This document shows, one piece after another, positions 4,882 through 60,999 of a stretch of 64,000 nt of DNA (position 1 is its first letter; every line of letters starts with the position of its first letter). The stretch spans positions 1,607 to 65,606 of the forward strand of contig CAWCWZ010000063.1 of the NCBI GenBank assembly GCA_963799395.1, in the 5' to 3' direction. This DNA comes from an uncultured Actinomycetes bacterium. GTDB lineage: Bacteria > Actinomycetota > Thermoleophilia > UBA2241. The notes below the pieces were generated by a model. That model had not been told where the DNA came from and searched no databases. It was given only the letters and a program-made list of their open reading frames with translations. The translations under genes were made by a program, and so were the position numbers.

Positions 4882-5725
4882 TCAGGCGGGGTAGGAGCCC
4901 AGCACCTTCAGCCAGGAGAGCTTGCAGCCGAGGCAGGAGAGCGCTTGGGCGATGGGCGGGTCGGAGCTGCGGCCCACCATGTCGATGAAGAAGATGTAGT
5001 CGCCGAGCCCCTGCTTGGAGGGCCGCGATTCGACCTTCGTCAGGTTGACGTAGCGGTAGGCGAACTCGGAGAGGATCATCAGCAGGCTGCCGGGCTGGTC
5101 CTGGGAGATGCCGCAGACGATGCTCGTCTTGAAGGTCTCGTCGGTCTCTTGCGGCGCCTCGTCGCGGCTCACGAAGACGAAGCGGGTGCGGTTCTCCTGG
5201 GCGTCGTCGATGTCGGGGGCGATCACCTCGCACTCGTACATCTCGGCCGCCAGGCGGGTGCCGATGGCCACCCACGGCCGGTCGACGCGGCTCACGCGGC
5301 GCACCGCTTCGGCGGTCGAGTCGGTGGCCTCGTGCTCGACGCCGTCCAGGTGCTCGCGGATGAACTCGCGGCACTGGCCGTAGGCGTGCGGGATGCTGAC
5401 GATCTTGGTGACGCGCTCGAACTCGAGCGGAGCGCCGGGCGATGAGCTGCTGGTGCACCTGCCAGGTGATCTCGCGCACGATGCGCAGCTCGTCGAAGCC
5501 GAAGGCCAGGCTGTCGAGGGTGACGACCACCGAGCCCTCGAGCGAGTTCTCGATGGGCACGATGCCCAGCGGCGCCTCGCCGGCCTGCACCGCCTTGAGC
5601 ACCTCGCGGATCGACGGGTAGGGGAACGGGTGGTAGGCGCCGATCGGCATGTTGGCCAGCAGGGCCTCTTCGCTGAAGGTGCCCTCGGGGCCGAGAAAGG
5701 CGATCGGCTGCGAGCCGGCGCTCAT
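4882..5725 (-). CDS. pheA: prephenate dehydratase (PDT catalytic domain plus ACT domain), reading frame broken by a 1-nt frameshift near 5432..5440
   Basis: The N-terminal PDT domain (MSAGSQPIAFLGPEGTFSEEALL...IVPIENSLEGSV...) lies in the frame of the composite ORF 4853..7579. The C-terminal part (APLEFERVTKIVSIPHAYGQCREF...ESRPS...VLGSYPA) lies in the frame of ORF 4882..5304. The span is 844 nt, which is not a multiple of 3. The start ATGA overlaps the stop of the upstream DUF4446 gene. Confidence 0.8.
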
Positions 5726-6402
5726 GCCGGCTCCTCCGGCCACGGCTCGTCGTCGGGCGGCGGCGGCGAGTGCGGCGACTCGATGGGGGCCAGAGGCGTC
5801 ACGGCGGGTGCCGCGGCCGGCGGCGCTGCCGGTTCGGCTGGTCTGGCGGCGGCGGGCCGGCCGGCGGCGGGCTCGGCTGCCGCCGCGGGCTTGGCGGCGG
5901 CCGGCTTGCCGGCCGCCACACCGACGAGCGCCTGCTCGACGACGTCGACCTCTTCGGGCGACAGCGCCCGGTCGGGCACCGAGCGGCGCAGCTGCTTGAC
6001 GTAGATGCGGGCGTAGTCGCGCGAGTGGATCATGCTGATGACGAGGCCCGAGGCGGTGTTGTCGAGCAGGGCGATCGAGGCGCTCTGCTCGCCGCCGATG
6101 TCGCGGAAGGCGTCGTAGCGCACGACGGCGCGGTGGGTGAAGGCGCGGTCGAGGTCGGTCTTGTAGCCGGTCAGCAGGCCGTCGAGGCCCTGCACCGCGT
6201 CGCGCAGGTTGCGCACCTGCTCCTCGAGGTCCTGGGCGTGGTCCACGAGGTCGCGCTCGCCGTGGGCGCCGAGCACGGCGAGCTGGGCCCGCCGCAGGCG
6301 GCGCTGCCCGCCGATGAGGCGCACCACGAGGATGAGCAGCACCACGGCGAGCGCGGCGGCGCCGAGCGCCAGGTAGGGGGCGATATCGCGCAGGGTCTGC
6401 AC
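5722..6402 (-). CDS. DUF4446-like membrane-anchored protein with Ala/Pro-rich C-terminal tail
   Basis: 226 aa ORF with an N-terminal TM helix and a conserved core (VRYDAFRDIGGEQSASIALLDNTASGLVISMIHSRDYARIYVK). Its stop overlaps the pheA start. Confidence 0.55.
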   Translation of the reverse strand: MQTLRDIAPYLALGAAALAVVLLILVVRLIGGQRRLRRAQLAVLGAHGERDLVDHAQDLEEQVRNLRDAVQGLDGLLTGYKTDLDRAFTHRAVVRYDAFRDIGGEQSASIALLDNTASGLVISMIHSRDYARIYVKQLRRSVPDRALSPEEVDVVEQALVGVAAGKPAAAKPAAAAEPAAGRPAAARPAEPAAPPAAAPAVTPLAPIESPHSPPPPDDEPWPEEPA

Positions 6403-6408
6403 GGACCG

Positions 6409-7512
6409 TTACTTGAGGACCGGGATGATGATGAAGCTCAAGCTGTTGTTGCTGAGGACCTTCTCGCCGGGCACGGGGCCGGCGATGACCTTGAGGTGCG
6501 ACGACTTGGTGATCGCCGTCGAGGGGATGTTGAGGCCCGTCACGTCGGCGGTCGCCGTCGCGCCCTTGGCGATCGAGGGGATGGTGGCGCTGTAGGTCTG
6601 GGGGGTGGTGCCGCCGGGGCCGGTCCAGGTGATCTTGACCGGCACGTTGGTCTCGGTCGAGCCGCCCGTGTTCTGGACCGTCGCGACGACGATGATGCCG
6701 ACCGACGCCTGGAAGTTGTTGGAGCCGCTGGTCGAGAGCGTCACCGTCTTGCCGTTGCTCTTGATGGCGACACCCGTGAGGGCGACGCCGTGCAGGCCGG
6801 TGAGCTTGGTCGACGACGCCACGGTCGCCAGGGCGGCGCTCAGGGCGCTCGGTGAGAAGACGTTGCTGGTCGCGAAGAAGCTGTGCAGCGCCGGCACGGA
6901 CACGTTGCTGACGCCGTCGTTCTTCAAGACGGTCTGGGCCTGCGTGTAGTAGAGCTGCTTGTAGTAGTCGTCGGGCCCGGTGAAGTAGCCCGACAGGGCG
7001 GCCAGCGCGCGGGCCGTGGTGTGGAGGTGCTTGCCGTTGAGGGCGGCCAGCAGCCCGCTGCGCACCTGTTCGACACCGGCCAGGCGCACCTGCTCGCCCT
7101 CGACCAGGACCTGCTGGAGGCTCTTGAGCTTGCCCGGGGCGTTGATGTGCTCGGTGCGGGTGGTGATCTCGTCCTGCTGGGCGACGAGAGCTTTGAGCGT
7201 GGACTGGAGCTGCGCGCGGCCGCTCTTTGTGGGGTCGGCGAGGAGCGCCGCGAGCGGCTTGCCGACCTTGTTGGTGGAGTCGGAGAGGACGTTCCCGACC
7301 TGGCTGAAGTACGTGCGGTAGGTCGCCTCTTTGGCGCTCTGCTGGCACGAGCGGATGACGAGGGCCAGCACGAAGACCAGCGCGAAGAGGGCGATCAGGG
7401 CGATCACGAGGCGCTGGATGCGCAGCCGGGAGCGGCTGCGCTTGCGGCGGGGGTGGCGAGGGGCCGGCGCCGTGACCTGCGTGATCTCTTGGTCGTCGTC
7501 GAAGAACGACAC
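6409..7512 (-). CDS. membrane-anchored protein with C-terminal CARDB/Ig-like beta domain
   Basis: 367 aa ORF with a basic N-terminus, one TM helix (LVIALIALFALVFVLALVI), a long helical region, and a C-terminal beta-rich domain (VVATVQNTGGSTETNVPVKITW). Confidence 0.5.
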   Translation of the reverse strand: MSFFDDDQEITQVTAPAPRHPRRKRSRSRLRIQRLVIALIALFALVFVLALVIRSCQQSAKEATYRTYFSQVGNVLSDSTNKVGKPLAALLADPTKSGRAQLQSTLKALVAQQDEITTRTEHINAPGKLKSLQQVLVEGEQVRLAGVEQVRSGLLAALNGKHLHTTARALAALSGYFTGPDDYYKQLYYTQAQTVLKNDGVSNVSVPALHSFFATSNVFSPSALSAALATVASSTKLTGLHGVALTGVAIKSNGKTVTLSTSGSNNFQASVGIIVVATVQNTGGSTETNVPVKITWTGPGGTTPQTYSATIPSIAKGATATADVTGLNIPSTAITKSSHLKVIAGPVPGEKVLSNNSLSFIIIPVLK

Positions 7513-7535: not shown

Positions 7536-7622
7536 TGGTGGGCGAGGCGGGATTTGAACCCGCAAGCTCTTGCGAGCACTAGGTCCTGAACCTAGCGTGT
7601 CTGCCAATTTCACCACTCGCCC
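7536..7622 (-). tRNA. leuT: tRNA-Leu (anticodon CAG)
   Basis: The reverse complement folds as a type-II tRNA: acceptor GGGCGAG/CTCGCCC, anticodon stem CTAGG/CCTAG with loop TTCAGGA, a long variable arm, T-loop GGGTTCAAATCCCGC, and an encoded CCA. leuT also sits upstream of fhaA in mycobacteria. Confidence 0.85.
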
Positions 7623-7729: not shown

Positions 7730-8842
7730 GTGCCCGCCTCGTCGTACGACCGCACACCCCTCTTCACCGACTGGCGCGACCGCTACGAGGTCGTGGCCAA
7801 GATCGGGGCCGGCGGCTCGGCCGAGGTCTACGAGGCCGTCGACCTCGAATCAGAGCGCGACGTCGCCCTCAAGGTCATCGACGAGCGCGGTGCCCTCGCC
7901 GGTCGTGTGGTGCGCGAGGTCGAGGCCGCCCGGGCCCTCGACCACCCCGGCATCGTCGCCCTGCTCGACTTCTTCTCCGACGGCCGCCGCAGCTTTCTCG
8001 TCTGGGAGCTGGTACGCGGCCAGTCGCTGGCCGAGCTCGCAGGCGAGCTGCGCGACGACGAGGCGGTGCTGGCCGCCGCCCAGCTCTGCGACGCCCTCGC
8101 CTACGCCCACGCCAAGGGCGTCGTGCACCGCGACGTCAAGCCCCAGAACGTCATGATCGACGGCCGCGGCGTGGTCAAGGTCATGGATTTCGGCATCGCC
8201 CACCTGTCCGGCGCCGACACGCTGACCGCCGAGGGCGAGCTCCTCGGCACCGTCGCCTACATGTCGCCCGAGCAGGCGGCCGGCCGCCGCGTCGGCCCGC
8301 CGACCGACGTCTACTCGGCCGCCGTGCTGCTCTACGAGCTGCTGGCCGGCAACAACCCCGTGCGCGGCGCCACCGCCGGCGAGACCGTCGGCAACATCAT
8401 CGGCGGCCGCATCGCCCCCCTCGAACAGCTCCGCCCCGACCTGCCGCGCGAGCTCTCCGACGTGGTGGCCGCCGCCTGCGCCACGCGCGCCGTCGAGCGG
8501 CCCTCGGCGGCCGAGACGGCCGAGGCCCTGCGGGCCCTGGCCGAGCGCGTGAGCGGCGGCGGCCGGCGGCTGCGCCCCGGCCGCCTGCTGGCGCCGCTGC
8601 GCCGCCTCGAGGTGGTCGCCAGCCGTGGCCTCGGCGCGGCCCTCGCCGGCGCCGGTCTCGCCATGCTCGTCGCGCGCCTGCCGGCCTACCCGCCGAGCTG
8701 GACGCTGCCGCTGGCCCTGGCGCCGCCGCCCTCTGGCTGGTCGTGCCGTCCGCCGGCCTGGCCTTTGCCCTGGGCGCCGGCGCCTTCCCGGTGTTCAACC
8801 TGTCGGGCTCGGCCGGCGTCGCCTACGTGGCGGTCGTCCTGA
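7730..8842 (+). CDS. Hanks-type Ser/Thr protein kinase catalytic domain plus one TM helix; the last ~50 codons of the ORF look out of frame
   Basis: Kinase motifs present: IGAGGSAEVY, VALKV, HRDVKPQN, DFG and SPE. After a putative TM helix (GLGAALAGAGLAMLVARL) the frame decays into a Pro/Trp-rich tail (PPSWTLPLALAPPPSGWSCRPPAWPLPW). Confidence 0.8.
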   Translation: MPASSYDRTPLFTDWRDRYEVVAKIGAGGSAEVYEAVDLESERDVALKVIDERGALAGRVVREVEAARALDHPGIVALLDFFSDGRRSFLVWELVRGQSLAELAGELRDDEAVLAAAQLCDALAYAHAKGVVHRDVKPQNVMIDGRGVVKVMDFGIAHLSGADTLTAEGELLGTVAYMSPEQAAGRRVGPPTDVYSAAVLLYELLAGNNPVRGATAGETVGNIIGGRIAPLEQLRPDLPRELSDVVAAACATRAVERPSAAETAEALRALAERVSGGGRRLRPGRLLAPLRRLEVVASRGLGAALAGAGLAMLVARLPAYPPSWTLPLALAPPPSGWSCRPPAWPLPWAPAPSRCSTCRARPASPTWRSS

Positions 8843-9438
8843 CCGTGTTTCTGGCCTTCCGCCGGCGGCCCCTCTACTGCGTCTGGCCGGTGCTGGCGCT
8901 GGTCCTCGTCCCCGTCTTCGGCACGCTGCTCGCCGTGTGTGCGGCGGCGGCCTTCGGCCGCCGCCGCGGCCCCCTGGTCGCCGCCTGGACGGCGATCGTC
9001 ACCTATCTCGTCGTGGCCCTGGCGGCGCCGGCGCGCTCGGCCTTCGCCGGCTATCAGGCGCCCGGCCGGCTGGCCGGCCGCCTGCTTGCCGCCGGCGACC
9101 CGCTCACGCTGCTGATCGCCGCCGGTCGCGCCGTGGTGAGCTGGCCCTGCCTGTTCCAGGCGGGGCTGTGGGCCGGCCTCGCGCTGGCGCTGGCCATGGC
9201 CCTGCGCCTGCCGCGCCTGGAGACGCGCCTGTGGCTGTGGTCTCTTACCTTCAGCGCCTTCTACATTCTTGCCCGCGCCGTGCCGGTCTCGCTGTGGCAC
9301 CTGCCGGCCGGCTCGCGCGAGCTCCTGCTGAACGTGCTGGTCGCGGCCGCCGCGAGCGCCGTCGTGCTGGTCGCGGTCTCGCCCGAGGCGGGCAGCGCGC
9401 CGGTGCCGGCCGGCGATCCGATCTGGGACGAAGCCTAG
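8743..9438 (+). CDS. polytopic membrane domain ORF (at least 5 TM helices), probably the C-terminal domain of the preceding kinase displaced by a -1 frame change near 8683..8692
   Basis: A hydrophobic helix-rich translation (…AAALWLVVPSAGLAFALGAGAFPVF…VLALVLVPVFGTLLAVCAAAAF…) is open in this frame from about 8683. It has no start codon of its own until the GTG at 8743 and overlaps the kinase ORF tail. Confidence 0.5.
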   Translation: MPSAGLAFALGAGAFPVFNLSGSAGVAYVAVVLTVFLAFRRRPLYCVWPVLALVLVPVFGTLLAVCAAAAFGRRRGPLVAAWTAIVTYLVVALAAPARSAFAGYQAPGRLAGRLLAAGDPLTLLIAAGRAVVSWPCLFQAGLWAGLALALAMALRLPRLETRLWLWSLTFSAFYILARAVPVSLWHLPAGSRELLLNVLVAAAASAVVLVAVSPEAGSAPVPAGDPIWDEA

Positions 9439-9512: not shown

Positions 9513-10298
9513 TTGAACGTACTCAAGTCGATCGAGAAGCACATGGAGAAGATGGTCGAAGGCATCTTCGGCCGCGCCTTCAAGTCGAGCGTGCAGCCGG
9601 TCGAGCTCGCCCACAAGCTGGCCAAGGAGATGAGCGACCACAAGACCGTCAGCGTGTCGCGCGTCTACGTGCCCAACGAGTACGAGGTCTACCTGTCGCC
9701 CGGCGACTACGAGCAGCTCAGCTCGTTCGAGGGTCCGCTCGTCGAGGACCTGGCGAGCTACCTCGTCGCCTGCGCCAACCGCGAAAGCTGGACCCTCGTG
9801 GCGGCGCCGCAGATCAGCCTGCACTCCGACGCCGACCTCGCCCTCGGCGAGTTCGGCATCGCCGCCCACATGGCCGCGCAGGCCGCTCCCGACTCGGGCG
9901 TCGCCCTGGCGGCGCCGCCCATCGGCACCGTCTCCAAGCCGCCGGCCGGCCTGTCGCAGACGATCGTCTTTCAGCCGCCGGGCGGCGGCGCCGCGGCGGT
10001 CGCGGCGCCGCCCCGCCTGTGCGGCGTGCTCGTGCGCGGCGAGCGCGTCTACCGTCTCGACGCGCCGGTCACGGTGCTCGGCCGCAGCCGCCAGTGCGAC
10101 GTCGTCATCAACGACCCGAACGTCTCGCGGCGCCACGCCGAGGTGCGCCGCGAAGGCGACGGCTACGTCCTCGTCGACCTCGACTCGACCAACGGCATCA
10201 CGCTCAACGGCCAGGGGGTGAAACGCGCCGCGCTCGCCGAGGGCGACCGCCTGCAGCTCGGCACCACCGGCCTGCGCTTCGAGAACCGGCCGTGCTAG
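9513..10298 (+). CDS. fhaA: FhaA-like protein: DUF3662 domain plus C-terminal FHA domain
   Basis: A TTG start is preceded by GGGAG. The N-terminus (LNVLKSIEKHMEKMVEGIFGRAFKSSVQPVELAHKLAKEM) is DUF3662-like. The C-terminus is an FHA domain (…VTVLGRSRQCDVVINDPNVSRRHAEVRREGDGYVLVDLDSTNGITLNG). It occupies the position typical of the mycobacterial fhaA locus. Confidence 0.7.
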   Translation: MNVLKSIEKHMEKMVEGIFGRAFKSSVQPVELAHKLAKEMSDHKTVSVSRVYVPNEYEVYLSPGDYEQLSSFEGPLVEDLASYLVACANRESWTLVAAPQISLHSDADLALGEFGIAAHMAAQAAPDSGVALAAPPIGTVSKPPAGLSQTIVFQPPGGGAAAVAAPPRLCGVLVRGERVYRLDAPVTVLGRSRQCDVVINDPNVSRRHAEVRREGDGYVLVDLDSTNGITLNGQGVKRAALAEGDRLQLGTTGLRFENRPC

Positions 10299-10874
10299 AC
10301 ACCGTCCTCTTCGCCCTGAAGATCGCCTTTCTCGTTCTTCTGTTCCTCTTCGTGTTCTTCGTCGTACGGCGTACCGTGCGCGACGTCTCGGGCGACGCCG
10401 AACGGCCGGCGCCGGCGCCGCAGTCGCGCCCGGCGCCGCGGGCCGCCGCCGTCACCGCAGCGCCCGTCGCGGCGGCCGCCGCGAGCGTGCCCGAGGCGAC
10501 GCCGGCCGAGCGCCGCAAGCGCCGCGAGAAGCGCCAGACCGAGCGCACCATGCCGGGCGAGTCGCTCGACTTCCTGGCCGCACGTCAATCCGCGCCTCGT
10601 GGTCGAGGCCAGCCCCGTCCTGGCGACCGGCACCGAGGTCATGCTCGAGGGCTGGATCATGATCGGCCGCGCCCCGACCAGCGACCTCGTGCTCGACGAC
10701 CCCTTCGTCAGCCAGACGCACGCCCGCGTCGTGCCGCGCGGCCAGCTCCACTTCGTCGAGGACCTGGGCAGCACCAACGGCACGTTCGTGAACGGCCGCG
10801 AGGTGATCGAGGCGCAGCTCATGCTCGACACCGAACTGCGCATCGGCGAGACGATCTTCCGCTACGAGGAGTGA
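10292..10874 (+). CDS. fhaB: FhaB/FipA-like protein (N-terminal TM helix plus FHA domain), frames joined by a 1-nt shift near 10585..10598
   Basis: The GTG at 10292 overlaps the fhaA stop. The TM and linker part (VLDTVLFALKIAFLVLLFLFVFFVV...) is in the frame of ORF 10019..10885. The FHA part (RLVVEASPVLATGTEVMLEGWIMIGRAPTSDLVLDDPFVSQTHARV...EDLGSTNGTFVNG) is in the frame of ORF 10599..10874. Confidence 0.7.
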
Positions 10875-10881
10875 CCGGCGC

Positions 10882-12282
10882 GTGAGCCTCGTCGCCCGAC
10901 ACGCGGCGCTGACCGACATCGGCCTGCACCGCTCGACCAACGAGGACGCCTTCGTCGCCGAGCCGCCGCTCTTCGCGGTGGCCGACGGCATGGGCGGGGC
11001 GCAGGCCGGCGAGGTCGCCTCGCACCTGGCCCTCGAGGCGCTCGTCGAAGCCCTGGCCGGCGACGTCGACGCCGAAGCCGAAGCCGACGCCCGCGGCAAC
11101 GCCCGCGGCGACGTCGACGAAAGCGCCCGCGTCGACCTGGCCGACGCCGCCCTGGCCGCCAACGCCAGCGTCTATCAGCGCTCGCGCACCGACCGGGCCC
11201 ACACCGGCATGGGCACCACGCTCACGGCGGCGCTGCTCGGCGACGACCGCCTCGAGTTCGCCCACGTCGGCGACAGCCGCCTGTACCTCTGGCGCGACGA
11301 GCGGCTCGAGCAGATCACCGACGACCACTCCCTGGTCGGCGAGATGGTGCGCGCCGGCCACCTCACGCCCGAGGCGGCCCTGACCCACCCGCAGCGCAGC
11401 ATCCTGAGCCGGGCCCTGGGCACCGAGCCGCGGGTCGAGGTCGACTCGGGCGCGCTCGAGCTGCGGGCCGGCGACGCCGTCGTGCTCTGCAGCGACGGGC
11501 TCTACTCGATGATCTCCGAGGAGACGTTCGCGGCCGTCCTGGCGGCCGTCGACGACCCCTGGCGGGTCGCCCGCCAGCTCATCCGCGAGGCCAAGAACGA
11601 GGGCGGCCACGACAACATCACCGTCATCGTGCTGCGCTTCGACGAGGCCGGCGAGGGCGCCGGCGAGCCGGCGCTCGACGACGCTGCAACGGCGGTCCTG
11701 CCGGCGGTCGACGACGCCGCCACGACCGGCGTGCTGCCGGCGCTCGACGCCGGCCCCGAACAGCTGAGCCTCGACGTGCCGGCCGACGATTCCGACCCGG
11801 CTGAAGCGCCCGAGGCGCCGGCCGGCGAAGCCGCCGTCGCCGCGTCGCCGGCCGACGAGGCCGAACTCACCGATGCGGCGGCGGCTGCCGATACGGCCGC
11901 GGCTGCCGATGCGGCGGCGGCTGCCGATGCGCCCCCGGCCGCTGCCTCTGCCGACGCGCTGCCGCGGCGTCGCCGCCGGCGCCGGCTGCGGCTCGTCGTC
12001 GCGCTGATCGCCCTGCTCGCGGTCTGCCTGGTGGCCGGCGCCGTCGTCGCCGACGGCGTCTACTACGTCGGCGACCACGACGGCATGGTCAGCGTCTACC
12101 GCGGCCTGCCCCTGCGGGTCGCCGGGGTCGAGCTGAACCGCCTTTACCTGCAGACGACGACGCCGCTCAGCGCGGTCCCGCCCAACGTGCTCGCCCAGAT
12201 CCAGCGCCACGACCTGCACAGAAGGGCGGCGGCCATGGCGCTGGTCGACAAGGCCGACAAGGCCGAGGGCTTCCCGCCGTGA
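10882..12282 (+). CDS. pstP: PP2C-family Ser/Thr phosphatase with C-terminal membrane anchor (PstP/Ppp)
   Basis: Contains the PP2C motifs DGMGG, GTTLTAALL and CSDGL, then a long acidic Ala/Asp-rich linker, a poly-Arg stretch and a TM helix. It overlaps the rodA start. Confidence 0.85.
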   Translation: MSLVARHAALTDIGLHRSTNEDAFVAEPPLFAVADGMGGAQAGEVASHLALEALVEALAGDVDAEAEADARGNARGDVDESARVDLADAALAANASVYQRSRTDRAHTGMGTTLTAALLGDDRLEFAHVGDSRLYLWRDERLEQITDDHSLVGEMVRAGHLTPEAALTHPQRSILSRALGTEPRVEVDSGALELRAGDAVVLCSDGLYSMISEETFAAVLAAVDDPWRVARQLIREAKNEGGHDNITVIVLRFDEAGEGAGEPALDDAATAVLPAVDDAATTGVLPALDAGPEQLSLDVPADDSDPAEAPEAPAGEAAVAASPADEAELTDAAAAADTAAAADAAAAADAPPAAASADALPRRRRRRRLRLVVALIALLAVCLVAGAVVADGVYYVGDHDGMVSVYRGLPLRVAGVELNRLYLQTTTPLSAVPPNVLAQIQRHDLHRRAAAMALVDKADKAEGFPP

Positions 12283-13601
12283 GCCGCCGCAACACCGAGC
12301 TCCTGCTGCTGCTCCTGGTCGGTGTGGCGGCGACCATCGCCTACGTGTCGGTGTACGCGGCCCGCGTTCACGACCTGCGCCGCGACTCGGTCGTCACCGG
12401 CCTGATCTTCGCCGTGCTGTTCCTGGTCATCCACCTGGTCGAGCGTCGCTACCTGGCGCAGGCCGACCCCTACCTCGTGCCGATCGCCGCCCTGCTCAGT
12501 GCCACCGGCCTGACCGAGATCTACCGCATCGCGCCGGCGCTCGCCTGGAAGCAGGGCGAGTGGCTGCTGATCGGCGTCGGGCTGTTCGCGGCCACCGTGC
12601 TCGTCGTGCGCGACGTGCGCCGCCTCGACGCCTACCGCTACCTGTTCGGCCTCGCCGGCCTGCTCCTGCTGGCGCTGACCATCGTCGCCGGCACGAGCGT
12701 CAACGGCGCCCGCCTGTGGATCCGCGTGGCCGGCTTTTCGATCCAGCCGTCGGAGTTCGCCAAGATCGCCATCGTCATCTTTCTGGCCGGCTACTTAAAC
12801 CAGAACAAGGAGATGCTGTCGGTGCCGACGGCGCGCCTGCTGGGCGCCCCGGTGCCGCCCCTCAAGTACTTCGGTCCGCTGCTCGTGATGTGGGTGCTGT
12901 CGCTGCTCATGCTGGTCTTCATGAAGGACTTCGGCATGTCGCTTTTGTTCATGGCGACCTTCATCGCCATGCTCTACATGGCCACGACGCGGATCATCTA
13001 CGTGATCGCCGGCGCCCTGCTGTTTGCCTTTGGCGCTGGGGGCGCCTACCAGTACGTGCCCCACGTCCACGAACGGTTCGCCATCTGGATCGACCCCTGG
13101 AAGACGGCCGCCACCAGCGGCTACCAGCTCCTGCAGTCGCTGTTCGCCATGGCCGACGGCGGCCTCGTCGGCGCCGGTTTTGGGCGCGGCTACCTGCTCT
13201 ACGCGAACCACGTCCCGACCGTGCCCGACCTGCAGACCGACTTCATCTTCAGCGCCATCGCCAACGAGCTCGGCCTGGCCGGCGGCATCGGCCTGATCCT
13301 GCTGTTCCTGCTCTTTGCCTGGCGCGGATTCCACATCGCCCTGCACGCCTCGGACGGCTTCTCCAAGCTGCTGGCGGCCGGCCTGGCCACCGTGTTCGGC
13401 CTGCAGAGCTTCATCATCGTCGGCGGCGTCACCCGGCTCATCCCGCTGACCGGCATCACGCTGCCGTTCGTGAGCTACGGCGGCAGCTCGCTGACCGCCA
13501 ACCTGGTGCTCGTGGCGCTGCTGCTCATGGTCTCGCACCGCAGCCAGGTGGTCGAAGCCGGCAGCACCACCGAGCGCATGCGCCTGGCGGAGCTTTCGTA
13601 G
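12279..13601 (+). CDS. rodA: SEDS-family peptidoglycan glycosyltransferase (RodA/FtsW)
   Basis: A 440 aa polytopic membrane protein with conserved SEDS segments (GFSIQPSEFAKI, DFIFSAIANELG, PFVSYGGSS). Confidence 0.85.
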   Translation: MSRRNTELLLLLLVGVAATIAYVSVYAARVHDLRRDSVVTGLIFAVLFLVIHLVERRYLAQADPYLVPIAALLSATGLTEIYRIAPALAWKQGEWLLIGVGLFAATVLVVRDVRRLDAYRYLFGLAGLLLLALTIVAGTSVNGARLWIRVAGFSIQPSEFAKIAIVIFLAGYLNQNKEMLSVPTARLLGAPVPPLKYFGPLLVMWVLSLLMLVFMKDFGMSLLFMATFIAMLYMATTRIIYVIAGALLFAFGAGGAYQYVPHVHERFAIWIDPWKTAATSGYQLLQSLFAMADGGLVGAGFGRGYLLYANHVPTVPDLQTDFIFSAIANELGLAGGIGLILLFLLFAWRGFHIALHASDGFSKLLAAGLATVFGLQSFIIVGGVTRLIPLTGITLPFVSYGGSSLTANLVLVALLLMVSHRSQVVEAGSTTERMRLAELS

Positions 13602-13611
13602 GGGGCCGGCG

Positions 13612-15042
13612 ATGAATCGTGCCATCAGCCGCGTGTTCGTCGTCGGGGCGATCCTCATGGTCGCCCTCATGGTCAACCTCGCCTGGATTCAGGTCTTTCA
13701 TGCCAGGAGCCTGCGCGACGCTCCGCAGAACCACCGCGTCCTCGCCCAGCAGCTCCGCGTCAAACGCGGGCTCATTCAGGGCTTCGACGGCTCGACCATC
13801 GCCGGCGACGCCAAGCGCTCGGGCTTCTACTACCGAACCTATCCGCAGGGGCCGGTCGCTCCCCAGATCGTGGGCTACGACAGCGTGCGCTACGGGCAGA
13901 GCGGCATCGAGTCGTCGCTGAACGGCTACCTGAGCGGCAGCAAGGCCGGCACGCAGAGTCTCGTCGACCGCATCCTGGGACGTCAGAGCCCGGGCGCCAA
14001 CGTCGAGCTCACCATCGTGCCGGCCGTGCAGAAGGTGGCCCAGAGCGCCCTCGGCGCCCAGGTCGGCGCCATCGTGGCGCTCGACCCGAGCACCGGCGCC
14101 GTCATCGCCGCCGCTTCGGCGCCGAGCTACAACCCGGCGACCATCGACGTGAGCTTCAGGTCGCTCGCCGGGAACCCCGACGCGCCGCTCCTCAGCCGCG
14201 GCACCCAGGGCCTCTACCCGCCGGGCTCGTCGTTCAAGGTGGTGACCGCCACCGCCGCCCTCAACCTCGGCAAGGTCACGCCGACCACCCCCTTCGTCGA
14301 CTCGGGCGTCTACGACATCTACGGTGGCAAGGTCACCAACTACCACGGCGAGGTGTTCGGCGCCAACGACTTTACCCAGGCGCTGACCCATTCGATCAAC
14401 ACCACCTTCGCCAAGGTCGGCACCCTGATCGGCCAGGCGGCCCTGATCGCCCAGATGAAGGCCTACGGGTTCTACCAGGTGCCGCCGCTCGAGCTGCCGC
14501 CCGGCATGGTCCTGCCCAGCGGCCGCTACCAGGGCGCGGCGCTGCTGTCACCGGCCGCCGCGATGAACCCTCTCGACCTGGCCTGGGCGGCGGTCGGCCA
14601 GGAGAACGTGCTGGCCACGCCGCTGCAGATGGCCCTGGTGGCCGCCGGCGTGGCCGATGCCGGGCAGGTGATGAAGCCGTACCTCGTGCAGCGCATCACC
14701 AGCAGTTCGGGGAGCGTGCTGCAGGCGGCGGCGCCGAGGCTCTGGACGACGGCCACGAGCCCGGCCACGGCGCAGACCCTGAACGTCATGATGCAGCAGG
14801 TCGTGAACGCCGGCACCGGCACCGCCGCCGCCCTGCAGGGCATCCAGGTGGCCGGCAAGACCGGCACGGCCCAGAAGGGCTCGAGCAACGTCGCCTGGTT
14901 CATCGCCTTCGCCCCGGCCAACGACCCCAAGGTGGCGGTGGCCGTGACCATCGAGAACACGCTGTTCACCGGCGGCGACGTGGCGGCGCCGCTGGCCGCC
15001 CAGGTCATCAAGGCCGCCCTGGCGCAGCCCGCGCTGCCCTGA
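13612..15042 (+). CDS. pbpA: class B penicillin-binding protein (transpeptidase)
   Basis: N-terminal TM anchor followed by a transpeptidase domain containing SxxK (PGSSFK), SxN (SIN) and KTG (KTGTA). Confidence 0.85.
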   Translation: MNRAISRVFVVGAILMVALMVNLAWIQVFHARSLRDAPQNHRVLAQQLRVKRGLIQGFDGSTIAGDAKRSGFYYRTYPQGPVAPQIVGYDSVRYGQSGIESSLNGYLSGSKAGTQSLVDRILGRQSPGANVELTIVPAVQKVAQSALGAQVGAIVALDPSTGAVIAAASAPSYNPATIDVSFRSLAGNPDAPLLSRGTQGLYPPGSSFKVVTATAALNLGKVTPTTPFVDSGVYDIYGGKVTNYHGEVFGANDFTQALTHSINTTFAKVGTLIGQAALIAQMKAYGFYQVPPLELPPGMVLPSGRYQGAALLSPAAAMNPLDLAWAAVGQENVLATPLQMALVAAGVADAGQVMKPYLVQRITSSSGSVLQAAAPRLWTTATSPATAQTLNVMMQQVVNAGTGTAAALQGIQVAGKTGTAQKGSSNVAWFIAFAPANDPKVAVAVTIENTLFTGGDVAAPLAAQVIKAALAQPALP

Positions 15043-15093: not shown

Positions 15094-17041
15094 TTGACCG
15101 AAGCATTCGAACAGGGACAGGTGATCGCCGGCCGCTACCGCGTGCTGCGCCGGCTCGGCGTCGGCGGCATGGCCGACGTCTACCTCGCCGACGATACGAC
15201 CCTGGGACGCCAGGTGGCGGTCAAGGTGCTGCTCAAGCGCTACGCCGGCGACGCTTCGTTCGTCGAGCGCTTCCGCCGCGAGGCCCAGGCCGCCGCCCGC
15301 ATCAACCACCCCAACATCGTCAACATCTACGACTGGGGCCCGGTCGACGGCACCTACTACATCGTCATGGAGTACGTCGAGGGCGAGACGCTCAAGGACC
15401 ACATCCGCCGCGAGGGCCGCTACAACCCGAGCGAGGCGGTGCGCATCGCCCTCGAGCTCTTGGCCGGCGTCCAGGTGGCCCACGGCGCCCACATCGTCCA
15501 CCGCGACATCAAGTCGCAGAACATCCTGATCGACCGCGCCGGCACGGTGAAGGTCACCGACTTCGGCATCGCCAAGGCCGACGACACGCAGATGACCGAG
15601 GCCGGCTCCATTCTGGGAACCGCCCAGTACCTGGCTCCCGAGCAGGCCAAGGGCGAGTCCGTCGACGAGCGCACCGACCTCTACTCGGTGGGCGTCGTCT
15701 TCTACGAGATGCTGACCGGCTCGCTGCCCTTCCGCGGCGACAGCGCCGTCACCGTCGCCCTCAAGCACGTGAACGAGCAGCCGGCCGAGCCGGCCGAGCT
15801 CGTGCCCGGGCTGCCCTACTCGCTCAACCAGATCTGCCTGAAGGCGCTCGCCAAAGACCCCGACCAGCGCTACCGCACGGCCGCCGAGTTCACCGCCGAC
15901 CTCGTCGCGGCGCGCAGCGGCGGGCCGCTGCTCGCCGCCGCCTACGACCCGTCGCTCGACCGCACGCTGGTGCAGTCGCCGTCGGCCGGCAACGAGGGCA
16001 CGACCCGGGTGCTGCCCAGGGCCCCCGTGGCGGCGGCCGCCGGCGGCGCCGCGGCCGGTACGGCTGGCGCCGCGGGCGCGAACGGCGGGCGCGGCAGCAA
16101 GCGCAAGCGCTCGCCGTGGCCGTGGATCGCCCTTGTCGCCTTTCTCGTCATCGCGGCCGTCGCCGGGGTGCTGATCTGGCACTCGTTCTTCGGCGGCTCC
16201 ACGCTCACCGTCCCTTCGGTCGTCGGTCAGCCCCAGGCGGCCGCCACGACGCAGCTCCAGAACGAGGGCTTCGTCGTCAAGGCGCACGACGACTACTCCG
16301 ACCAGTACGGGGTGGGGCTCGTCACGAGGCAGCAGCCGACCGTCGGCGGCAAGCTCGTCAAGGGCGGCACCGTCGACATCTGGGTGAGCCGCGGCCCCGC
16401 CACCTCCACCCTGATCGATTTCAGCGGCTGGACGCCGTCGCGGGTGGCGGCCTACCTGGCCAAGTACGGCCTTGTCGGCAAGGAGCTCTTCGGCGCGTCG
16501 ACGACGGCGCCCAAGGGCACGGTCTTCAAGCAGAGCCCGGCGCCGGGGATCACGGTCACGCGCGGCGACACCGTCAGCTACTGGGTGAGCCGCGGCCTGC
16601 CGCAGGCGATCGTGCCCGACCTGTCGGGCCTCGACCAGACCCAGGCGACGGCGGCGCTGCAGGCGGTCGGTCTGGTGGGTATCTTCGCGCAGCAGACGAG
16701 CACCCTGGTGCCGGCCGGCCAGGTCACAAGCCAGAGCCCGGCGGCCAACACGGCGGTCCCCAAGGGCAGCACCGTGGACGTCGTGATCAGTACCGGCACA
16801 CCGACGCCGACCACCAGCCCCTCGAGCTCGCCGACCTCGACCGGCCACGCCGGTCGCCGTGCCGAGCGTGGTGACCATGCCCGAGACCCAGGCCGAGCAG
16901 CTCCTGAACAACGCCGGCTTCGTCGTGTCGGTCAAGCACGGCACGAGCACGCTGGGCTCGGGTTACGTCTACGACCAGTCGCCCGCGGCCGGCGACCAGG
17001 CGGCGCCCGGCAGCACCGTCATCATCTGGGTCACCAAGTAG
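15094..17041 (+). CDS. pknB: Ser/Thr protein kinase with four extracellular PASTA domains; the last PASTA domain is displaced by a +1 frameshift at about 16843..16848
   Basis: Kinase domain motifs LGVGGMADVY, HRDIKSQN and DFG, then a TM helix (PWPWIALVAFLVIAAVAGVLIW) and PASTA repeats 1-3 in the main frame. The fourth PASTA (PVAVPSVVTMPETQAEQLLNNAGFVV...IIWVTK) is in ORF 16859..17041. An extra C in a GGCC context explains the shift. Confidence 0.85.
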
Positions 17042-17128: not shown

Positions 17129-18124
17129 TCAGGCCTTGGCGATGAAGATCACGTAGACCAGGTAGAGCGCGTACATCGAGCCGGCCCCGCACAGCGTGAA
17201 CCAGGTGAGCTTGTGCCTGAGGCGCAGCTGCAGGTAGAACACCGTGCCCGAGACGAGCGCTAGCACGCCGCTGACGAGGCCCGTGCGCGTGAGCTGCCAG
17301 GTCGTGAAGAGCAGCCCGATCGACACCGGGAAGGTGCTCTGAAAGACCATCGCCCCGGTGATGTTGCCCAGGGCCAGCGTGTCCTTGCCCTGGCGCACCC
17401 AGATCACCGAGTTGAACTTCTCAGGCAGCTCGGTGGCGAGCGGGCTCAGGATCAGCGAGACGAGCAGCGGGTCGATCCCCAGTGAGGCGCTGACGTGCTG
17501 CACCTGGGTGACGAAGAAGCGCGCCCCGAGGATGATGCCCAGCGTCGCCACGCTGACCTGCAGGATGATGCGGCGCCGGTGGGGCATGACCGGGTGACGG
17601 TGAAAGTAGAGCGGCTTGGTCTCGCCCTCGAGCTGGCCGCCGACGCGCACCGTGCGCCAGACGTAGACGCCGTAGGCGACCAGCAGGCACGGCGACAGGA
17701 TCCACTTGACGTGGTGGTACGGCAGCACGCCGGCGATCATGGCGCAGGCGTAGGCGACGACGAAGAACGACAGGTCGCGACGCAGCACGGGCTCGTTGAT
17801 CGTGAACTCGAGTGGGCGCCGGCGGCGCAGGTAGAAGACGACGACGGCGCCGCCGGTGACGACCATGGTGAGGCTCGAGAGCATGAACGGGGCGCCGAGG
17901 ATGGCGCCGATGCCGATGTCCTTGGAGTCGGGGGCGTGGGTGAAGAGGATGGCGATGATCGGGATCAGCGTCTCGGGCAGGGCCGTCCCCACGGCCGCGA
18001 GCACGCTGCCCACCGCCCCCTCGCCGAGCTCGAAGCGCCGCCCGAACCACTCGATGCCGTTGGTGAACAGCTCGGCCGAGACAAGGATGATGGCCAGGGC
18101 GAGCAGGAGGTAGACGACGGTCAT
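17129..18124 (-). CDS. Ca2+/cation antiporter (CaCA / sodium-calcium exchanger family) membrane protein
   Basis: 331 aa with about 10 TM helices and two alpha-repeat-like segments (GTALPE... and SPLATELPE). Confidence 0.6.
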   Translation of the reverse strand: MTVVYLLLALAIILVSAELFTNGIEWFGRRFELGEGAVGSVLAAVGTALPETLIPIIAILFTHAPDSKDIGIGAILGAPFMLSSLTMVVTGGAVVVFYLRRRRPLEFTINEPVLRRDLSFFVVAYACAMIAGVLPYHHVKWILSPCLLVAYGVYVWRTVRVGGQLEGETKPLYFHRHPVMPHRRRIILQVSVATLGIILGARFFVTQVQHVSASLGIDPLLVSLILSPLATELPEKFNSVIWVRQGKDTLALGNITGAMVFQSTFPVSIGLLFTTWQLTRTGLVSGVLALVSGTVFYLQLRLRHKLTWFTLCGAGSMYALYLVYVIFIAKA

Positions 18125-18176
18125 GGTCCCGGCAGCTTACCACGCTGCCCGTGGCGCTCCGGCCGCGCGTCCGCCG

Positions 18177-19691
18177 CTACGTGTGCGACACCTCCTTGCG
18201 CACCTCGCGCGAGGCGAGCGCCCAGTAGACGAGGCCGCCGACGACGATGCCGATCAGCCAGCTCAAGTCGGAGCCCGACGTGCGCGAGGAGATCGGCCCC
18301 ACGTACGAGGGCACGTAGTACAGGGCATTGGTCCACATCATGGCGGCCGCCATGCCGAGGAGCTGGGCGATGACCGCCGGCCAGTGGAGGCCGCCATTGC
18401 GCCAGTAGAGGCCGCCGCGCTCCTTGGCGAGCGAGAGCGGGTCGTAACGCCCGCGTCGCAACAGGTAGTCGACCATCACGATGGCGAACCACGGGGCCAG
18501 CCAGACCACGATATAGAGCAGGAATCCCTTGAGGTCGGTGTAGAAGTCGCCCTTGAAGATGACCAGGGCGGTGACGATGGCCACGACCACGGTGTCAATG
18601 ATCACCGCCTGATAGCGGCGCACGGCGATGCCGATGGCCTGCAGGGTCACGCCCGAGGAGTACAGGTCGATCGTATTGATGGCGAAGAGCTGAGGCAGGG
18701 CGAGGATCATGTAGGGCCAGAAGAACCAGGCCGCGAAGGCCGCAGGGACGCCGGTCACGTCGAGGGTCTTGCTGCTGACGACAAAGGCGGCCGCGCCGAG
18801 CAACTCGAGCAGCAGCGAGGGGATAGCGGGGCCGAGCGTCGCCGCCCAGAAGGTCCTGGCCTTCGGCGTGGTGCGCGGCAGGTAGCGCGAGTAGTCGTTG
18901 CCGTTCTCGGTCCAGCCGAGCCCGCCGACCGAGATGATGACCACCAGCGCCGTCGTCCAGACGGCCCACGAGGCGCTCTGGTGCAGGCTGCTCAGATGAA
19001 CGTGGGGTACGATGAGGACGGCCATCACCGCAAAGACGGCGATGAACACGAACGACAGCCAGTGCAGCACCTTGGTGATCGTGGCGTGGCCGAGGAACGG
19101 CATGAGGAACTGCACGCCGACGGCGACCAGGATGAAGAGCACCTTGAGGCCGTTGCCGGCGGTCACGCCGCCGCGCAGGAACATCGCCTCGAACACCAGC
19201 ACGATGATGACGATGCCCTCGATCTCGAACCCGACCTGGGTGATCCAGTTGAAGAACGCCACGCCGCGGTTGGCGTTCTGCCCGAACGGCGCCCGGCTGA
19301 CCATGAAGGCGGTCGTGCCCGTGGCCGGGCCCTGCAGGCTGGCAAAGCCGAGCAGGATGTAGAAGACGTTGCCGGCGACGATGGCCAGCACCGCCTGCCC
19401 GAACGACAGCCCGAACGACATGATCAGCGCGCCGTAAACGAGGAACTCGACGTTCCATACCGCGCCGGCCCACAGCCAGAAGAGGCCGGCCGGGCGCATG
19501 GTGCGCGCCTCGTCGGGGATCAGCTCGATGCCACGCTGCTCGACCTTGAACGCGACGTTCTCGTCGGCCTGGTCCACAGGACCCGTGGGACTCGCGACGA
19601 CCGGCGTCTCTGCCACTGTCGCCCCCTTTCCGTGCTCGCTGCCGGGTACGGCCGTCGTCCGCCCCGCGCGGGGAGGCAATGACCGGGTCAC
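18177..19691 (-). CDS. NCS1-family (purine-cytosine / nucleobase) permease
   Basis: 504 aa twelve-helix transporter with NCS1-like segments. The true start may be an internal GTG or ATG about 25 codons downstream of the ORF start. Confidence 0.6.
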   Translation of the reverse strand: MTRSLPPRAGRTTAVPGSEHGKGATVAETPVVASPTGPVDQADENVAFKVEQRGIELIPDEARTMRPAGLFWLWAGAVWNVEFLVYGALIMSFGLSFGQAVLAIVAGNVFYILLGFASLQGPATGTTAFMVSRAPFGQNANRGVAFFNWITQVGFEIEGIVIIVLVFEAMFLRGGVTAGNGLKVLFILVAVGVQFLMPFLGHATITKVLHWLSFVFIAVFAVMAVLIVPHVHLSSLHQSASWAVWTTALVVIISVGGLGWTENGNDYSRYLPRTTPKARTFWAATLGPAIPSLLLELLGAAAFVVSSKTLDVTGVPAAFAAWFFWPYMILALPQLFAINTIDLYSSGVTLQAIGIAVRRYQAVIIDTVVVAIVTALVIFKGDFYTDLKGFLLYIVVWLAPWFAIVMVDYLLRRGRYDPLSLAKERGGLYWRNGGLHWPAVIAQLLGMAAAMMWTNALYYVPSYVGPISSRTSGSDLSWLIGIVVGGLVYWALASREVRKEVSHT

Positions 19692-24211: not shown

Positions 24212-24868
24212 TGCTCCTCAACCGCCAACGCGTGAAGTTCTGGCAGAAGATCGTCTTCGGCTTCATGGCGGTCCTCATGGCCGGCTTCCTGATCTTCGGC
24301 TACTCGGGCGTCATCCAGGGCTGCAGCGGGAATACCGTGAACTCGGGCAACAGCTCGCTCGACAGCCAGGTCAAGGCCGCCCTCGCCAGCCTCAAGAAGA
24401 ACCCCAACGACCCCACGGCGCTGCTCGGGGCGGCACAGGGCTACCAGTCGGCCGGGGTACGTCCAGAACGGCCTGCCCTCACCCAAACAGTCGAACGACC
24501 TGACCAGGGCACTCGGCTACTACGATCGCTACCTGAAGCTGCCCGACTCGGTACTTGGGGCGGCGGCGGTGGGCCTGCGCGTCAAGGCTCTCCTGGCGGA
24601 GGCCCCGATCTACAACGAGCTCATCGACTACAAAAGCGCGGTCGCCACCTACAAGAAGATACTCAAGCTGGAGCCGGGCTACTCCGACGCCTACCTGGGG
24701 ATCGCCTCCAGCGACGTCGCGGCCGGCAATACCGCCGACGCGATCGCCGCCTTCACGAAGTTCCTCAAGCTCGCCCCGCACTCGCAGTACGCGACCGAGG
24801 TCAAGAACGAGCTCGCCCAGCTTCAGGCGGCGGCGTCGGCGTCGCCCTCGCCCAGCGCCACGCCCTGA
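24211..24868 (+). CDS. membrane-anchored TPR-repeat protein, interrupted by a +1 frameshift in a GGGG run near 24454..24457
   Basis: The ATG overlaps the amidohydrolase stop (TGATG). The N-terminus with a TM helix (MLLNRQRVKFWQKIVFGFMAVLMAGFLIFGY...) is in one frame. The TPR-like remainder (YVQNGLPSPKQSNDLTRALGYYDRYLKL...AYLGIASSDVAAGNTADAIAAFTKFLKLAP) is in ORF 24569..24868. Confidence 0.55.

Positions 24869-56222: not shown

Positions 56223-60999
<4,777 letters not shown>

Follow-up and report, generated by a model that had tools for sequence, protein, structure and literature searches.

In mycobacteria and corynebacteria the serine/threonine kinases PknA and PknB phosphorylate FhaA, FhaB/FipA and wall-synthesis proteins, and these modifications are reversed by PstP. 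Two other described systems are close in layout. The mycobacterial MviN/MurJ-pseudokinase fusion Rv3910 consists of an N-terminal 14-helix MurJ flippase and a catalytically dead kinase fold with a functional link to FhaA, and in the intramembrane-sensing histidine kinases DesK and those of the LiaS/BceS type the sensor is built nearly entirely of membrane helices with minimal outside loops. Here we describe a kinase gene in a cell-wall cluster on a 64,000-nucleotide stretch of DNA (the window) from an uncultured Actinomycetes bacterium of the class Thermoleophilia (lineage UBA2241; assembly GCA_963799395.1, contig CAWCWZ010000063.1). Positions 7730-9438 of the window read as two open reading frames (ORFs) and almost certainly represent a single gene, encoding a kinase joined to a membrane domain, which is split by a 1-nt indel. 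The explanation we favor overall, with good confidence, is one gene, an indel artefact, and a membrane-anchored kinase within the cluster.

The intact gene would encode a receptor-type Hanks Ser/Thr kinase of 569 residues, in which a cytoplasmic catalytic domain at the N-terminus is connected by an Arg-rich juxtamembrane linker to a membrane domain of about ten helices at the C-terminus. It resembles the PASTA kinases of the PknB/PrkC/StkP type, such as PknB (Rv0014c) of Mycobacterium tuberculosis (Mtb), in the succession of an N-terminal and presumably active Hanks domain, a juxtamembrane linker, and a membrane anchor, and in its place in the same cell-wall/division cluster with FhaA, FhaB, PstP, RodA, and PbpA, but differs in having neither PASTA nor any other notable extracellular domain and in a predicted ten helices as compared with one. 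With respect to PknA (Rv0015c), the kinase appears to fill the role of the second kinase in clusters without pknA; PknA, however, has one helix and is encoded between pbpA and pknB, whereas the kinase described here is encoded upstream of fhaA and has ten predicted helices. As in Rv3910, a polytopic domain is joined to a kinase fold in the setting of the peptidoglycan pathway, but here the kinase is N-terminal, all catalytic motifs are intact, and the membrane domain matches no MurJ/MVIN model. The sensor layout is that of DesK and the LiaS/BceS-type enzymes, suggesting that a signal may be picked up inside the bilayer or from a membrane protein acting as partner, although the chemistry is that of a Hanks Ser/Thr rather than a histidine kinase and no sequence or fold relation was detected. 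In the literature, within an incomplete coverage, no description of a polytopic Hanks kinase in this cluster was found. A preprint presenting a bacterial kinase atlas mentions no more than a generic "C-terminal transmembrane region".

Gene structure and position of the frame break

In the ORF list the kinase ORF extends over 7730..8842 (370 aa) and a hydrophobic ORF in the neighboring frame over 8743..9438 (231 aa), the latter ending at the stop codon at 9436-9438. The source annotation similarly gives the 370-aa ORF (P0012) together with a 215-aa product starting at 8791 (P0100). The membrane frame is open from 7726 and its first start codon is the GTG at 8743. With one missing base restored, the whole gene (7730..9438, plus strand) runs from a GTG start at 7730 to the stop at 9436-9438 and encodes 569 aa. 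An intact 569-aa protein, P0101, which belongs to the same 90%-identity cluster as P0012 and is encoded on the sibling contig L040, has the same start and end.

As the window has a G+C content of 70.7%, third-position GC (GC3) clearly marks the coding frame. GC3 was 0.9-1.0 in the kinase frame to about 8700 and 0.9-1.0 in the other frame from there to 9438, and a change-point fit placed the switch at 8720, which is 122 nt ahead of the stop of the kinase ORF. The same position was obtained from the alignment with L040. Across the gene (1709 nt; 98% DNA identity) the two sequences differed by 32 substitutions and a single 1-nt gap, this sole gap being a base absent from the window after 8720 (CTGG-CGCC compared with CTGGTCGCC). 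Between WTLP and the following W the window has 23 nt where the relatives have 24 nt (8 codons). The relatives read LPAYPxxWTLP...W.V.P..GLA through the junction in one frame, as in P0006 (...LPAYPPRWTLPVALAAALIWLVAPRVGLAF...), whereas in the window LPAYPPSWTLPLALA lies in the kinase frame and AAALWLVVPSAGLAF in the other. The true junction peptide, found in every relative, is ...LPAYPPSWTLPLAL[V/A]AAALWLVVPSAGLAF....

The two ORFs had originally been predicted to be one gene separated by a single missing base, and both parts of this claim are supported by the L040 alignment, with its single gap, by the intact sibling ORF, and by the fused form of related loci described below. The site suggested for the repair, CCGCC(C)GAG (about 8690-8695), was incorrect, since the L040 alignment places the missing base between 8720 and 8721, 27 nt 3' of that site; the junction peptide proposed with it, ...PPELDAAAGPGAAALW..., is likewise not the one that the relatives show. 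Because the base is missing at 8720/8721, gene callers give a 370-aa kinase with a junk tail and a separate membrane protein of 215-231 aa. The Pro/Trp-rich tail of the 370-aa ORF (about 8721-8842) is out-of-frame junk and not native protein: over ~8722..8842 (plus strand; ...PPPSGWSCRPPAWPLPW...) GC3 drops, and the sequence is present in no relative.

Programmed ribosomal frameshifting, by which the two ORFs would be joined and a short and a long kinase made in a regulated ratio, would fit the overlap of the two frames and the lack of a stop codon in the new frame. Every relative, however, including the 98%-identity sibling, has a single-frame junction with one more base, and for this reason the explanation was rejected. 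A conserved site would also be expected, and no slippery motif is apparent at CTGGCGCC. We regard programmed frameshifting as having practically no likelihood.

Occurrence of the fused gene in related genomes

A locus scan of one genome per GTDB species identified 37 loci, all in metagenome-assembled genomes (MAGs) labelled Thermoleophilia, Actinomycetes, or Actinomycetota. Six of these loci end at a contig edge upstream of the membrane domain, leaving 31 with the upstream region. A separate membrane-protein gene, the arrangement which the original prediction had set against a fusion, was not found among them: in 29 of the 31 loci a single ORF of 518-612 aa contains the HRD and DFG motifs together with the membrane domain. 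No clean genome of a close relative was found in which the reading frame stops and restarts at this point. All 12 loci with short-read-like contig names (NODE_, k141_, k87_, k117_, scaffold, and similar) were fused. In the two exceptions, L004 and L018, both of them contig_NNNN assemblies, a kinase domain is likewise found, but broken into shifted pieces.

With the base restored, the window sequence aligned free of gaps to P0001, P0101, and 26 locus-derived sequences, and carried all signatures of the family (LPAYPxxW, P..GLA, FPxFN(V)S, RP...WP, GRxRG, GDP, LxQ, and RLExRLWxW). A profile search run exhaustively over 1.84 billion cluster representatives returned 58 proteins at E<=0.001, the full-length members being 544-596 aa in length with an N-terminal Pkinase domain. 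The family of kinases with this polytopic domain is small, and all members found come from uncultured genomes. The architecture is nevertheless not the singular case that had been implied, as it is the rule across Thermoleophilia and is found in more distant relatives.

These comparisons also bear on whether a single-pass kinase and a polytopic protein independent of it are encoded here by separate native genes, with ends overlapping by about 100 nt. The ORFs do read in this way, and the source annotation calls both P0012 and P0100. In the related loci, however, the two parts form one ORF in the proportion given above, the break falls within a conserved membrane helix, the tail of the kinase ORF has no homologue, and the stand-alone matches of the profile search include fragments at contig ends. 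Two native genes are thus highly improbable, and a single interrupted gene is the reading retained here.

Origin of the frame break

The missing base is very probably an assembly or base-calling indel, an artefact rather than a real mutation, and a long-read metagenome assembly is its likely source. An artefact is the most likely origin because at least seven further frame breaks were found in conserved genes of the window, giving at least eight in all across 64 kb. They affect pheA (~5431, minus strand; PDT profile positions 1-88 in one frame and 91-180 in another), fhaB (~10580, plus strand; membrane helix and FHA domain in different frames), pknB (~16841, plus strand; fourth PASTA repeat in another frame), an amidohydrolase gene (~23256; Amidohydro_1 positions 1-82 and 95-343), dnaK (~46718; HSP70 positions 1-391 and 390-599), a HAD hydrolase gene (~58490; HAD_2 positions 1-118 and 120-178), and ligA (~59033; with the N-terminal and adenylation domains in different frames). 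It is implausible that a free-living bacterium would carry true frameshifts in dnaK, ligA, and pknB, which argues for an artefact. No special meaning of the break in the kinase gene, one of at least eight, is supported. More GC3 switches without a nearby stop were seen at 24450, 40789, 41054, and 41836, and the overall break rate was roughly one per 6-9 kb.

Over 18 kb the window and L040 were 96.65% identical, with many 1-nt indels in coding sequence. Such indels coincided with the window breaks at 8720, 10580, and 16841, and L040 was intact at 8720 and 16841, its pknB being an intact gene of 689 aa. At indels at 6433, 6686, and 7118 the gene was intact in the window and uncalled in L040, which is broken at other places than the window. 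A third sibling has only a 185-aa fragment of the kinase gene (P0099) and is broken elsewhere.

Many of the related MAGs bear MFD names. The related contig_NNNN assemblies (ENA ERZ250394xx-ERZ250395xx, MFD MAGs; L001, L004, L018, and L040) show many breaks in the same cluster, including pknB in three pieces (L001), merged rodA-pbpA, and an uncalled pstP. Among the related proteins, P0002, P0003, P0010, and P0011 come from break-rich contig_NNNN assemblies, with shifts in P0010, in P0011, and in the C-terminus of P0003.

Were the deletion real in this strain, the product would be a truncated kinase made up of the catalytic domain, helix 1, half of helix 2, and the junk tail, in a recent pseudogene or gene split, and a separate membrane protein might restart at GTG 8743 or TTG 8791. 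The given sequence does lack the base, in-frame start codons are available downstream at 8743 and 8791, and the source annotation takes the second of these as the start of its 215-aa product. Two further observations count both in favor of a real deletion and against an artefact: the missing base lies outside a homopolymer run (GG-C compared with GGTC), and the pheA break at ~5431 is common to the window and its sibling L040, with no indel between the two assemblies there. It also has to be considered that the long-read origin of the window is deduced from related contig names and from the error pattern. A real strain-level frameshift at 8720 keeps a small probability. On the other hand, a real deletion would have to be accompanied in the same 64 kb by real frameshifts in dnaK, ligA, pknB, fhaB, pheA, and others; the sibling assemblies (~97% identity) are broken at different places and intact at 8720; and GC3 is still 0.9-1.0 downstream of the break, so that no decay is evident. 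On balance we consider a real deletion unlikely and an indel artefact the better explanation. With respect to pheA itself (minus strand, ~4885-5740; prephenate dehydratase), the gene has one extra base relative to L001 and is in the same state in L040. Unlike the other breaks, this one may be either a systematic, context-dependent base-calling error or a real mutation shared by the siblings.

Kinase domain

The catalytic domain comprises residues 19-263 (7784..8518, plus strand) and is of the Hanks type, with a match to Pfam PF00069 of 1.2e-48 over profile positions 1-257 of 263. In the window the catalytic motifs read GAGGSA, VALK, E63, HRDVKPQN, DFG, and SPE, and the activation loop carries TLT. 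Across 37 family members the G-loop, VAxK, the alphaC Glu, HRDxKPxN, DFG, and SPE were invariant or near-invariant, with K, E, HRD, N, DFG, and PE invariant in 36-37 of the 37 full-length members. Judged from these conserved motifs, the kinase would be catalytically active. An Arg-rich cytoplasmic juxtamembrane linker follows at residues 264-297 (8519..8620, plus strand), as delimited from the alignments.

The catalytic domain is 38% identical to that of the PknB encoded in the window. The top matches of a PDB sequence search were 9ymt and 4eqm, with no annotation beyond Ser/Thr or protein kinase, together with Mtb PknB, StkP, and Mtb PknA. While the PknB of the window scored 260 bits against Mtb PknB and 239 bits against Mtb PknA, the kinase domain described here scored only 135 and 125 bits, respectively, and is thus far more divergent than a PknB-type catalytic domain. 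From these scores Mtb PknA groups with the PknB lineage and the kinase forms a more distant branch. Orthology with PknA was considered and rejected, given the gene position upstream of fhaA, the polytopic architecture, and similarity scores of 125 as compared with 239 bits. As far as sequence comparison can indicate, the kinase is probably an analogue of PknA in role and not its orthologue.

Membership among the PASTA kinases was rejected as well. No Pfam match to PASTA repeats was found in the kinase/polytopic protein, the NCBIfam model NF033483 (PASTA kinase) matched the kinase part only, with 249-335 bits against a cut-off of 450, and about ten predicted helices are present instead of one.

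Membrane domain

Membrane helix 1 (residues ~298-316, GLGAALAGAGLAMLVARL; 8621..8677) was placed by hydropathy together with the helix of an AlphaFold2 (AF2) model, and the loop that leads from it to helix 2, predicted to lie on the outer side, carries the family signature LPAYPxxW (8678..8701), defined by conservation in relatives. The frameshift site (8720..8721), located by the L040 alignment and GC3, falls in the codon of residue 331, in the middle of helix 2. The remainder of the polytopic domain (residues 332-569; 8722..9435) comprises half of helix 2, helices 3-10, and a short acidic C-terminal tail. All of these features lie on the plus strand.

A model built with only 6 sequences was too poor for use (pLDDT 56). 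We therefore relied on an AF2 model of the homologue P0001, for which 49 sequences were used and which aligns without gaps to the window domain at 66% identity. This model was wholly helical, with pLDDT 87 and pTM 0.78. A helix starts in it at P0001 residue 43, which corresponds to window residue 288. Transferred to the window protein, the helices of the model span residues ~298-316, 322-338, 340-358, 360-377, 381-396, 399-409, 414-432, 472-493, 497-522, and 529-549, with short helices at 447-454 and 458-469 in the single longer loop. Given a cytoplasmic kinase, the basic segments RRRP (378-381), GRRRG (410-414), and RLPRLETR (494-501) would be on the cytoplasmic side, and the conserved LPAYPxxW, FPxFN(V)S, and GDP on the outer side. 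The predicted topology is accordingly N-in with ten crossings and C-in, although it was derived from the secondary structure of the model and the positive-inside rule rather than from a dedicated predictor. The prediction of a kinase anchored by a polytopic domain, rather than by one helix plus PASTA, is therefore upheld; the number of helices, given as five or more, has to be raised to about ten.

The membrane domain fits no described family. The second ORF had no Pfam match, and none was found even at E<=5 over 26 members of the family. NCBIfam gave no match for the domain, and a Foldseek search against the PDB gave no fold match (best E 1.3, TM <0.2). In a relaxed Pfam scan of the 26 membrane domains, Epiglycanin_C and AmoC appeared at E>=0.01 and were rejected as chance matches.

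LPAYPxxW was near-invariant in 26 close relatives, and most of the distant ones carried (L/I)P(F/A)YP..W. The positions conserved in distant members are mostly Pro, Gly, and Trp and a few Arg, and a set of acidic, His, Cys, or Ser residues conserved among them, such as would point to a ligand or an activity, was not found. This pattern suggests a structural or sensing module rather than an enzyme, and the lack of such a set tempers any functional reading of the domain. The conserved outer-loop sequence F-N-(V/L)-S at residues 356-359 (window ~8794-8805; alignment columns 84-87) contains a possible N-x-S sequon; most close members retain it, and in most distant ones it reads N-x-S/A. No other observation points to glycosylation.

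Gene cluster

Downstream of the kinase gene, on the plus strand, are fhaA (9513..10298; TTG start at 9513; Pfam FhaA_N 3.7e-33 and FHA 1.7e-20), fhaB (10292..10874; FHA 1e-17 for 10599-10871, with the GC3 switch at 10576 and the 1-nt indel relative to L040 at 10580), pstP (10882..12282; Pfam PP2C_2 and PP2C), rodA (12279..13601; SEDS family, Pfam FTSW_RODA_SPOVE 5.5e-78), pbpA (13612..15042; Pfam Transpeptidase and PBP_dimer_2), and pknB (15094..17041; Pkinase and four PASTA, three of them in one frame and the fourth in the other). Divergent from the kinase gene is tRNA-Leu(CAG) on the minus strand (7536..7622; ARAGORN). The end of pbpA at 15042 and the start of pknB at 15094 are separated by only 51 nt, so that there is no pknA between them. 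As originally predicted, the locus has the order tRNA-Leu, kinase, fhaA-fhaB-pstP-rodA-pbpA-pknB, with the kinase upstream of fhaA and pknA absent.

The order DUF4446 (minus strand), a membrane-anchored protein of 340-380 aa (minus strand), kinase-polytopic gene, fhaA, fhaB, pstP, rodA, pbpA, and pknB was found in all 37 loci, and none of them contained pknA. In the tblastn synteny table for these loci fhaA denotes collinearity at the DNA level, and the assignment of FhaA in relatives rests on precomputed Pfam calls. The same order surrounds the distant members P0104 (low G+C), P0096, and P0062, whose membrane domains are 22-27% identical, and hence the linkage of the kinase gene to those for the FHA, PP2C, SEDS, PBP, and PASTA-kinase proteins is old and stable. 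Thermoleophilia have the cluster with the kinase as its first gene, and so do more distant relatives whose placement is uncertain.

The conserved neighbor in the window (6409-7512, minus strand) encodes a 367-aa protein with an N-terminal membrane helix. It had no Pfam match and only sub-threshold NCBIfam matches (FxLYD domain, anti-sigma factor), and in all 37 loci its counterpart stands beside DUF4446, divergent from the kinase gene. Elsewhere in the window, ARAGORN called a 93-nt tRNA-Gly(ACC) at 18105-18197 (plus strand), which overlaps the starts of the minus-strand transporter ORFs at 17129-18124 and 18177-19691 and, given its unusual length and anticodon, is probably a false positive. 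At 57057-58520 (plus strand) a SurE domain and the first part of the HAD hydrolase lie in one open frame, as adjacent genes or as a fusion.

Proposed function and significance

By analogy with the mycobacterial and corynebacterial system we tentatively propose a functional picture which we hold to be plausible, if somewhat short of an even chance. The kinase would be the second kinase of the module, acting with PknB and opposed by the PP2C phosphatase PstP. Its likely substrates would be FhaA and FhaB, the two FHA proteins, together with components of the machinery for wall synthesis formed by RodA-PbpA. PknB senses through extracellular PASTA; in contrast, the input to this kinase may come from within the plane of the membrane through the helical bundle. 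An intramembrane input seems the most likely because the extracellular surface is minimal and the conserved features lie in the bilayer or at its edge. The kinase might respond to a lipid-linked precursor, to the physical state of the membrane, or to a partner membrane protein such as RodA-PbpA. What tells against giving this picture more weight is that both the substrates and the sensed signal are suggested by gene neighborhood and analogy.

A further-reaching proposal, which we regard as doubtful though worth stating, is that in the ten-helix domain Hanks kinases would have an intramembrane sensor of a new class, one that reads a lipid-linked wall intermediate or the state of RodA-PbpA, and that the kinase would hold the place of PknA in deep-branching Actinomycetota. 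If this were true, the ancestral actinobacterial wall cluster would have paired an outside sensor, the PASTA kinase, with an in-membrane sensor kinase.

In annotation, a single gene should be entered at this locus. Statistics on gene content or pseudogenes taken from this and the sibling assemblies are inflated by indel breaks, and protein databases built on such assemblies contain chimeric out-of-frame sequences. The frame break itself is ordinary; the protein is a lineage-typical and apparently undescribed variant of the bacterial receptor Ser/Thr kinases. Activating signals are known for very few bacterial Ser/Thr kinases, the PASTA kinases being the main case. The gene of the kinase described here has a fixed place as the first in the actinobacterial cell-wall signalling cluster that has been studied best, in lineages without PknA, and the only domain through which the kinase could receive an input is a membrane bundle that is conserved but unannotated. 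The kinase thus offers a concrete target for asking whether wall synthesis may also be monitored inside the membrane.

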